A stretch of 11,240 nucleotides of DNA. Source: a virus (taxonomy: Duplodnaviria > Heunggongvirae > Uroviricota > Caudoviricetes). Where the stretch lies: IMG/VR virus record IMGVR_UViG_2537561823_000007, positions 1 to 11,240 of that record; one strand, given 5' to 3'. A program made the position numbers and the translations under genes. A model generated the notes under the pieces. The model was given only the letters and a program-made list of their open reading frames with translations, was not told where the DNA came from and searched no databases. This document shows positions 3,209 through 3,569 of this stretch, piece by piece. Each line of letters opens with the position of its first letter. The first letter of the stretch is position 1.

Positions 3209-3343
3209 ATGCTTAAAACTGACGCTCTTTTGTATTTCGGTTCAAAAACAAAACTTGCACAAGCAGCAGGTATTCGTTTGGCTTCGCTTTATAGCTGGAA
3301 AGGGGATTTAGTTCCCGAAGGTCGCGCGATGCGTCTAGCCTGA
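3209..3343 (+). CDS. dicC: DicC-like cro analogue, short 44-aa form (possibly truncated)
   Basis: ATG 3209 to TGA 3341..3343 gives MLKTDALLYFGSKTKLAQAAGIRLASLYSWKGDLVPEGRAMRLA. The N-terminus matches what I recall of DicC, but K-12 DicC is about 76 aa. Below the ORF-track length cutoff. Confidence 0.55.
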   Translation: MLKTDALLYFGSKTKLAQAAGIRLASLYSWKGDLVPEGRAMRLA

Positions 3344-3532
3344 CCGTCACAAAGTATATGGTGTCTGTACCAGTAAGATGATGGCCGGACTCTTTAAAAA
3401 CGAGCTGACCTGCACAATACAGGATGGACTTAGCAATGGCTGCTCCTGGCACAAAGCGGACAGTGATCACCGTTCTTACGACTACTTTCTGACTTCCTTC
3501 GTGACTTGCCCTAAGCATGTTGTAGTGCGATA

Positions 3533-3558
3533 CTTGTAATGACATTTGTAATTACAAG
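3533..3558 (+). promoter_or_regulatory. relBE operator (relO) with promoter
   Basis: CTTGTAATGACATTTGTAATTACAAG contains inverted TTGTAAT/ATTACAA repeats immediately upstream of the relB ribosome-binding site. Matches the recalled relO arrangement. Confidence 0.7.
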
Positions 3559-3569
3559 AGGTGTAAGAC

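Follow-up and report, generated by a model that had tools for sequence, protein, structure and literature searches.

In this study, we investigated the immunity region of a Qin-type cryptic prophage in the IMG/VR virus record IMGVR_UViG_2537561823_000007, positions 1 to 11,240 (this whole stretch of 11,240 nucleotides (nt) is hereafter called the window), paying attention to the segment that connects the Cro-like gene dicC with the control region of the relBE operon. The gene order of a Qin-type prophage, ydfD-dicB-DicF-ydfA-dicA-dicC with relBE-hokD downstream, was found in the window by means of the annotation of E. coli strain 504239, to which positions 1..4412 are 99.9% identical with four mismatches. 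The divergent layout of the immunity region is kept as well: dicA, coding for the CI/C2-like repressor, lies intact on the minus strand at 2718..3125 (135 amino acids, aa; open reading frame (ORF) list, annotation of 504239 and Pfam HTH_3), the DicA operator Oc lies at 3175..3194, and the Cro-like gene starts on the plus strand at 3209. The dicC promoter, reported to follow the sigma-70 consensus with a -10 element that overlaps Oc (Yun et al. 2012, PMC3441716), was located by a consensus scan at 3148..3176 (plus strand), with the -35 TTGACT at 3148..3153 and the -10 TATCTT at 3171..3176. The intact order of such a region, in which dicC is followed by ydaT or ydfX, is broken in the window by a joint at 3337/3338.

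The Cro-like gene is truncated and is written here as dicC'. As the earlier note on this DNA had read it, the ORF at 3209..3343 (plus strand) comprises only 44 codons and ends with TGA at 3341..3343; alignment revealed that its product consists of 43 native DicC residues, one alanine (GCC) and the stop, the GCC-TGA being supplied by the ydfV side. In alignments to K-12 and to strains STEC276 and 1297KP, the left homology ends at 3337 and the right homology starts at 3336, which places the joint at 3336..3338 with the sequence ..GCGATGCGTCTA/GCCTGACC.. (a slash marks the joint throughout) and a 2-bp TA microhomology at 3336..3337 that is present in both parental contexts. Codon 43 of dicC is thereby fused to ydfV, which points the other way and of which 210 nt (70 codons) at the 5' end are left; this remnant, ydfV', occupies 3336..3545 on the minus strand according to the K-12 ydfV coordinates and the ORF list. 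It runs on as a chimeric ORF of 110 codons (3213..3545, minus strand) antisense to dicC', for which neither a Pfam match nor a record as a called gene was found. Both dicC' and ydfV' are labelled by RefSeq as incomplete pseudogenes in strain 504239.

On the other side of the joint, the sequence from 3336 to 4153 equals that of K-12 with the single exception of 3621 in relB, and the relBE promoter and operator are therefore untouched. This control region (3506..3557, plus strand, identical to K-12) contains a -35 TTGCCC at 3506..3511, a -10 GATACT at 3529..3534 and the operator relO, TTGTAATGACATTTGTAATTACAA, at 3534..3557, that is, 190 bp past the dicC' stop and at the distance which the earlier note had estimated. 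We take these elements to be the relBE promoter and relO by reading the window against the published relBE control region. The antitoxin gene relB (3570..3809; ORF list, Pfam RelB) and the toxin gene relE (3809..4096; ORF list, Pfam ParE_toxin) follow on the plus strand and overlap by stop and start, as in a relBE locus.

Origin and distribution of the dicC'/ydfV' joint

In K-12, DicC has 76 aa, and ydfX', ydfW, flxA and ydfV lie between dicC and relB. Pairwise alignment to this interval, which the earlier note had proposed as a check, placed the breakpoint at 3337/3338 and showed 1,617 bp to be missing, namely the 3' end of dicC, ydfX', ydfW, flxA and the 3' end of ydfV. The note's account of a longer K-12 protein and of several intervening genes was essentially right, and the window shares neither the length of the reference DicC nor the junction found in Qin, an identity which the note had named as refuting its claim. 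Its statement that the whole block between dicC and relB is absent stands for ydfX', ydfW and flxA and not for ydfV, of which the 5' part survives. The closest relatives over the left flank, STEC276 and 1297KP, are 99.9% identical to the window over 1..3337, with just four differences, at 165, 1061, 3186 and 3194. In both, DicC is intact at 76 aa, and its gene is succeeded by ydaT (173 aa), a 321-aa ORF, a DUF977 gene, an ISEsa1 transposase remnant, ydfW, flxA, ydfV and relB, a larger block than that of K-12, and measured against them 4,456 bp are missing from the window.

With respect to distribution, the joint was detected in exactly six of 5,426 complete E. coli genomes (504239, 67-1, WS1933D, S1-NGR-02-A, LR883000 and TW11681), as against 837 complete genomes with the intact dicC-ydaT/ydfX junction. 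The joint also occurs in many draft assemblies, and it was identical in all other carrier loci examined; in the index of public assemblies, 121 blocks contain the 44-aa product in exactly this form. TW11681 has been described as a volunteer-challenge strain of the enterotoxigenic E. coli (ETEC) lineage L6 (O19:H45, heat-stable enterotoxin STh, colonization factor CFA/I; PMC6630672), and we infer that all carriers of the joint belong to this lineage.

Since the joint cuts both dicC and ydfV in the middle of the gene, since the intact arrangement prevails in 837 complete genomes against six, and since the nearest relatives are intact with a nearly identical left flank, we consider it probable that the feature is a derived, lineage-specific deletion in a Qin-type cryptic prophage, which has left dicC' as a probable inactive remnant and would have stabilised repression by DicA. 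This bears out the earlier suggestion that dicC is 3'-truncated through a deletion. Under this reading, an ancestor resembling STEC276 and 1297KP, with dicA, dicC, ydaT, the 321-aa ORF, DUF977, the ISEsa1 remnant, ydfW, flxA, ydfV and relBE-hokD, would have lost 4,456 bp through end-joining at the 2-bp TA microhomology, leaving codons 1-43 of dicC with an alanine and a stop, 70 codons of ydfV, and the relBE promoter and relO unaltered.

The earlier note had also raised a different ancestral junction. On such a view the short arrangement, or another kind of mosaic joint, would have come first, and insertions would have produced the longer arrangements of K-12 and STEC276. Lambdoid prophages are indeed mosaic, and a real module boundary lies nearby, at nt 94-105 of dicC, but the joint cuts two ORFs that are full-length in hundreds of genomes, the full-length members of the DicC family measure 69-77 aa, the joint is confined to the six complete genomes, and the nearest relatives are intact, all of which makes an ancestral junction most improbable. 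It might also be argued that the dicC'/ydfV' junction is an assembly artefact of a short draft contig, given that the window is the entire 11,240-bp contig APYV01000076.1 and that this contig does hold one suspicious join, inside hokD. The joint between dicC' and ydfV' is, however, identical in six complete genomes, several independent drafts, a metagenome contig and Logan assemblies, and only 2 bp are common to both sides, so that there is no k-mer repeat able to mislead an assembler there; for this joint an artefact can be regarded as refuted.

The module boundary within dicC (window approximately 3302..3313) was noticed in its own right. Other Cro types, which have just the C-terminal half of dicC together with ydaT in common with it, at 88-98% identity, occur in approximately 1,650 complete genomes; since only this half is shared, the DNA-recognition and C-terminal halves of the Cro family appear to reassort.

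The truncated product, the Oc operator and the DicA/DicC switch

The 44-aa product still matches Pfam P22_Cro (PF14549) at 34.2 bits with a cut-off of 30.2, as compared with 44.1 bits for full-length K-12 DicC, and covers positions 2-41 of the 60 in the profile, so that the complete five-helix domain is not present. Residues 1-59 of full-length DicC align to P22 Cro (PDB 1rzs), and an AlphaFold (AF2) model of DicC built with 24 homologues (predicted local distance difference test, pLDDT, 79) displays helices at residues 3-10, 13-20, 24-27, 37-46 and 55-70. The best structural match of this model is 1rzs, with a target-normalised template modelling (TM) score of 0.84 and a root-mean-square deviation of 1.2 A, followed by other all-alpha Cro proteins; DicC as modelled has the all-alpha P22-Cro fold. 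With P22 Cro, N15 Cro and Xfaso1 Cro, full-length DicC shares both the P22_Cro match and an orientation divergent from a CI/C2-like repressor gene over shared operators, whereas the window product stops at the equivalent of P22 Cro residue 42 and lacks the end of helix 4 and helix 5. Mapped on the model, the truncated product ends within helix 4 and keeps helices 1-3, including the helix-turn-helix, and most of helix 4. Across the alignment of the DicC family, residues 34-63 are the most conserved while the helix-turn-helix region varies, and the cut removes the nearly invariant Q44, A46, S47, L51, Y53, Y58, D59 and K63 as well as the invariant R66. Moreover, TW11681 carries a 1.3-kb IS3-family insertion sequence (IS) inside dicC' after nt 63 (locus L092, 873..2179; approximately window position 3272). 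Given the loss of helix 5 and of the most conserved residues, the IS in dicC' of TW11681 and the pseudogene annotation, dicC' is, on the model, most probably non-functional, a null allele.

The operator Oc, which has been defined experimentally (PMC3441716), reads TTGTTAGTTATAACTAACAG in the window as compared with TTGTTAGTTATGACTAACAA in the K-12 alignment, the two changes being G>A at 3186 and A>G at 3194. Across the 727 complete genomes that hold the region, this exact variant was detected in only the six deletion carriers, and no genome was found with just one of the two changes. All deletion-carrying loci display the variant and all intact loci examined display the K-12 form; over 3.3 kb, the two Oc changes make up half of only four differences from the nearest relatives. 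We therefore asked whether the two single-nucleotide polymorphisms (SNPs) are compensatory changes tied to the deletion, and this was rejected. In the 66 Qin-like copies from viral contigs, nearly all polymorphism of the dicA-dicC intergenic region falls within 3169..3196, the -10/Oc stretch (positions 3169, 3170, 3172, 3174, 3182, 3183, 3186, 3187 and 3194-3196); the 83-bp spacer hardly varies elsewhere, and in the same copies 3186A and 3194G each occur alone with an intact dicC in other haplotypes. Clustering of SNPs in so variable a stretch is therefore no evidence of compensation, and we conclude from the sequences that the Oc haplotype is private to the lineage and does not speak for compensation. 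A donor of the variant 20-mer for gene conversion was also not found, other collections yielding only unrelated chance matches besides the deletion carriers. Another deletion allele, the L023 type described below, is marked by a private change at 3170, immediately ahead of the -10.

As to the switch itself, DicA and DicC of K-12 are known to form a bistable switch; when dicC is deleted in K-12, the share of colonies that are spontaneously dicBp-ON falls from 1.16% to 0.04% and urea and heat induce less strongly, while the Rem antirepressor still induces without dicC (PMC10448788). Full-length DicC, when induced, impairs growth and represses dicA by a factor of 48 to 84, and it is for this full-length protein alone that operator binding and repression of the repressor gene have been shown (PMC11430063). 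Because of these published results on dicC deletion and DicC repression, the natural allele should favour the DicA-repressed state: the switch would lose its Cro arm, repression of dicBp by DicA would become more stable, the toxic dicBF operon would turn on spontaneously less often, and induction by the Rem antirepressor should remain possible. The suggestion in the earlier note that the truncation could alter the DicA/DicC switch is plausible by this analogy.

The engineered K-12 deletion of dicC (Ragunathan et al. 2023) is the nearest known counterpart, in that the Cro arm of a CI/Cro-type bistable switch is lost while the repressor and operators stay, with a published phenotype of 29-fold fewer spontaneous dicBp-ON cells and weaker urea and heat induction; cro-defective lambda prophages, which lose the Cro arm while repressor and operators remain, offer a further analogy. 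The window allele differs from the engineered one in being natural, in still encoding 43 N-terminal residues, in carrying two Oc substitutions and in having lost downstream genes including ydaT. Additionally, a simple scan for sites of the intrinsic type detected no terminator-like site at 3343-3570 (plus strand) or 3545-3125 (minus strand). Since none was found, derepressed transcription from dicCp could read through into relBE-hokD, and transcription out of the ydfV' remnant would run sense-wise toward dicA.

Lesions at nucleotide 129/130 of dicC

Several other DicC variants obtained by protein search diverge right after residue 43, as the window product does. The dicC sequence up to the shared breakpoint is ...GATGCGTCTA, and three further types of deletion depart from it, in each case at locus position 4129/4130. 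The L021 type (..GCGTCTA/TCCGGATTAATG) lacks 365 bp and runs into the 3' end of ydaT, with the native context GGCTA/TTCGG; the L023 type (..TCTA/TCTGGTCATC) lacks approximately 1.9 kb (about 1,879 bp) and ends in the DUF977 gene; and the L019 type (..TCTA/TTCGGCAGG) lacks 2,164 bp, its right end lying within the gene for the ISEsa1 transposase, with the native context TTTCTA/TTCGG. A nonsense allele, C130>T (Q44, CTA-TAG; locus L027, position 792), interrupts the gene at the same place. Taking the L021, L023, L019 and window types in turn, the right ends lie 365, approximately 1,879, 2,164 and 4,456 bp away and the microhomologies are CTA, TA, TCTA and TA, respectively, all joints lying at a TA.

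One further site is used twice, as the ydaT site GGCTA/TTCGG forms both the right end of the L021-type deletion and the left end of the K-12 ydfX' deletion (locus L004, 11202/11203). K-12 is itself a deletion derivative: its ydfX'/ydfW junction (L002, 4750/4751, in K-12, against L004, 11202/11203 and 14042/14043) lacks approximately 2.8 kb relative to STEC276-type prophages, and its ydfW is a 3' remnant of the ISEsa1 (ISNCY) transposase gene. By sequence, the L019 and L023 types could have arisen secondarily from the L021 type through repeats of 4-9 bp, as the new joint TCTAT(C/T)CGG matches the L019 site over 5-9 bp and the L023 site over 4 bp (6 of 7). What can be counted securely is therefore a pair of independent deletions and one point mutation at the same nucleotide, together with the one further site used twice. 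In complete genomes the L023-type joint was found at least once (strain 52F4) and the L019-type joint in none, while a count of the L021 type is uninformative there, the two halves lying 365 bp apart in intact genomes and being joined by the tool. The census of the 66 viral contigs gave 61 intact copies, three of the window type, one of the L019 type and one of another Cro type. Larger losses were also noticed: in other assemblies, proteins P0043 and P0047 are 127-aa fusions of DicC residues 1-51 with the C-terminal part of the Rem antirepressor, which implies a larger deletion of everything from dicC to rem, including relBE-hokD.

A number of points weigh against the reading of the window allele as a simple deletion that inactivated dicC. 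The ancestor has been reconstructed from two present-day relatives; the 44-aa product clears the P22_Cro cut-off of Pfam, and dicC' retains an intact promoter, ribosome-binding site and helix-turn-helix, so residual DNA binding or a dominant-negative effect of the truncated protein is possible from its sequence; and the read-through effects depend on the simple scan for terminators of the intrinsic type. The same truncation point has also been reached by other independent lesions, which could mean that DicC(1-43) has been selected and not merely broken. The short protein would then be a functional 'mini-Cro', kept for operator binding or titration after shedding a harmful activity, such as the growth defect arising from broad regulation of host genes. 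The convergence of the window-type deletion, the L021-type deletion and the Q44 nonsense mutation on residue 43/44, the retention of the promoter, ribosome-binding site and helix-turn-helix, and the Qin-independent growth defect caused by full-length DicC (PMC11430063) all agree with such selection. Against it, conservation in the family is highest in the C-terminal half that was lost, selection at the protein level leaves the nucleotide-identical breakpoints unexplained, the junk tails of the alleles vary widely, from 1 to 39 residues, and the IS after nt 63 in TW11681 indicates that the short ORF is dispensable within the lineage. A functional mini-Cro is thus quite improbable, and an inactive remnant left by a deletion is still preferred.

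Another alternative touches only the plain microhomology step of that deletion, and proposes that the breakpoint is the scar of a lost IS3-, IS30- or IS1-type element at dicC nt 129, removed by excision assisted by the transposase or by the IS excision enhancer (IEE) together with flanking DNA on one side. The nested deletions show a fixed left end, a variable other end, microhomologies of 2-4 bp and no IS at the joint, as an excision scar should, although two of the four alleles (the L019 and L023 types) are perhaps secondary to the L021 type. IEE-dependent excision has been reported to remove between a few nt and over 40 kb of IS-adjacent DNA (PMC9943667), IS loss has been reported to leave scars with microhomologies of 2-4 bp (PMC9943667; bioRxiv 10.1101/2023.06.07.543989), and IS3-family elements do insert in dicC, as observed in TW11681. 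The likeness to published cases of IS excision and of IEE-associated loss of flanking DNA (Kusumoto 2011; Calvo 2023; Snesrud 2018, as reviewed) lies in one-sided deletions with a fixed anchor, 2-4 bp of microhomology and no IS left; the difference from the IEE and ISApl1/IS30 cases is that no IS was seen at the dicC anchor in any sequence examined, which makes the resemblance circumstantial. Searches that covered exact patterns, the viral and JGI collections and a single guessed IS end detected no allele carrying an IS at nt 129: the exact-pattern scan for a TG-starting IS end at dicC nt 129 returned nothing, neither did the metagenome scan for any non-C base after TCTA, and the census of the 66 viral contigs showed none. 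We regard the IS scar as conceivable, though rather doubtful. A broader and unlikely proposal is that dicC nt 129/130 and the second site in ydaT are site-specific hot spots of breaking and rejoining, owing to a lost IS processed by IEE or to an unrecognised nuclease or recombinase acting at (C)TA. Removal of the Cro arm (the DicC C-terminus with or without YdaT) would then be convergent and would lock dicBF under DicA, and the private Oc substitutions of lineage L6 would adjust how DicA controls a promoter which is now directed at relBE-hokD.

Two other observations at this site were followed and discarded. Contigs ending at dicC nt 128-130 were considered as a sign of an IS, and this was rejected: the repeat that begins at nt 94-105 in the approximately 1,650 genomes, with a graph break at k of about 31, would place contig ends at approximately nt 129. 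Likewise, ISEsa1 ends and Pin-type invertase sites were examined as a cause of the breakpoint by sequence comparison and inspection, and no convincing similarity was observed.

Surroundings of the allele and its significance

The window corresponds to the whole of draft contig APYV01000076.1 of GCA_000356005.2 and is composed of two parts. Positions 1..4412 match the Qin-type prophage of the six complete genomes, and 4154..11240 match a different lambdoid prophage that lies approximately 350 kb away and in opposite orientation in the same six genomes. The switch between them occurs inside hokD (relF; 4168..4323, plus strand), a gene lying in the 259-bp stretch 4154..4412 common to the second prophage, and is placed by three SNPs between 4154 and 4329. 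No complete genome with the hokD-joined arrangement of the contig was found, and the join is either an inversion junction between the prophages or a misassembly across the repeat; owing to it, rem does not lie downstream of hokD in the contig, unlike in the six complete genomes. In its late region, the second prophage carries three tRNA genes on the plus strand, at 8913..8985, 9069..9141 and 9148..9219, annotated as Ile, Thr and Gly in strain 504239. The relB change at 3621 (G>T, RelB A18S) was found in this contig only and in none of 13 other loci with the same prophage region, including other deletion carriers.

Comparatively, the Qin (Kim) prophage of K-12, with the order dicB-dicF-ydfABC-dicA, dicC-ydfX'-ydfW-flxA-ydfV and relBE-hokD-rem, agrees with the window in its flanking genes and their order; identity amounts to 99.9-100% over dicA, the first 129 nt of dicC, and the stretch that runs from the 5' end of ydfV through relBE-hokD, and the small RNA DicF is present (1507..1558, minus strand; Rfam, 76.7 bits). 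The window differs in lacking the 1,617 bp, in a DicC of 44 instead of 76 aa, in the cut ydfV, in the loss of ydfX', ydfW and flxA, and in the two Oc substitutions. It also differs between DicF and ydfA (1560..2395), where ydfC of K-12 is absent, ydfB is truncated and another segment stands in their place. This segment contains overlapping ORFs without a Pfam match, one at 1837..2157 (plus strand; 106 aa, hydrophobic) and one at 1819..2394 or 1819..2436 (minus strand; 191 or 205 aa), and the architecture of 1560..2395 is common to approximately 52 complete genomes.

In summary, the truncated gene taken alone is ordinary pseudogenisation, already flagged by RefSeq, and a decay variant of a well-known cryptic prophage; the re-use of an exact breakpoint is the only puzzling element of the finding and, if real, would point to a specific mechanism that shapes prophage decay. 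The DicA/DicC switch has recently been shown to work as a bistable switch, and it controls the toxic division inhibitors DicB and DicF, the former of which also confers protection against some phages. A natural allele without the Cro arm, so far seen in a small set of ETEC that includes TW11681, offers a ready-made test of what the Cro arm contributes to spontaneous and stress-induced dicBF expression in a pathogen, and it also bears on the progressive 'locking' of cryptic prophages in the course of their domestication.

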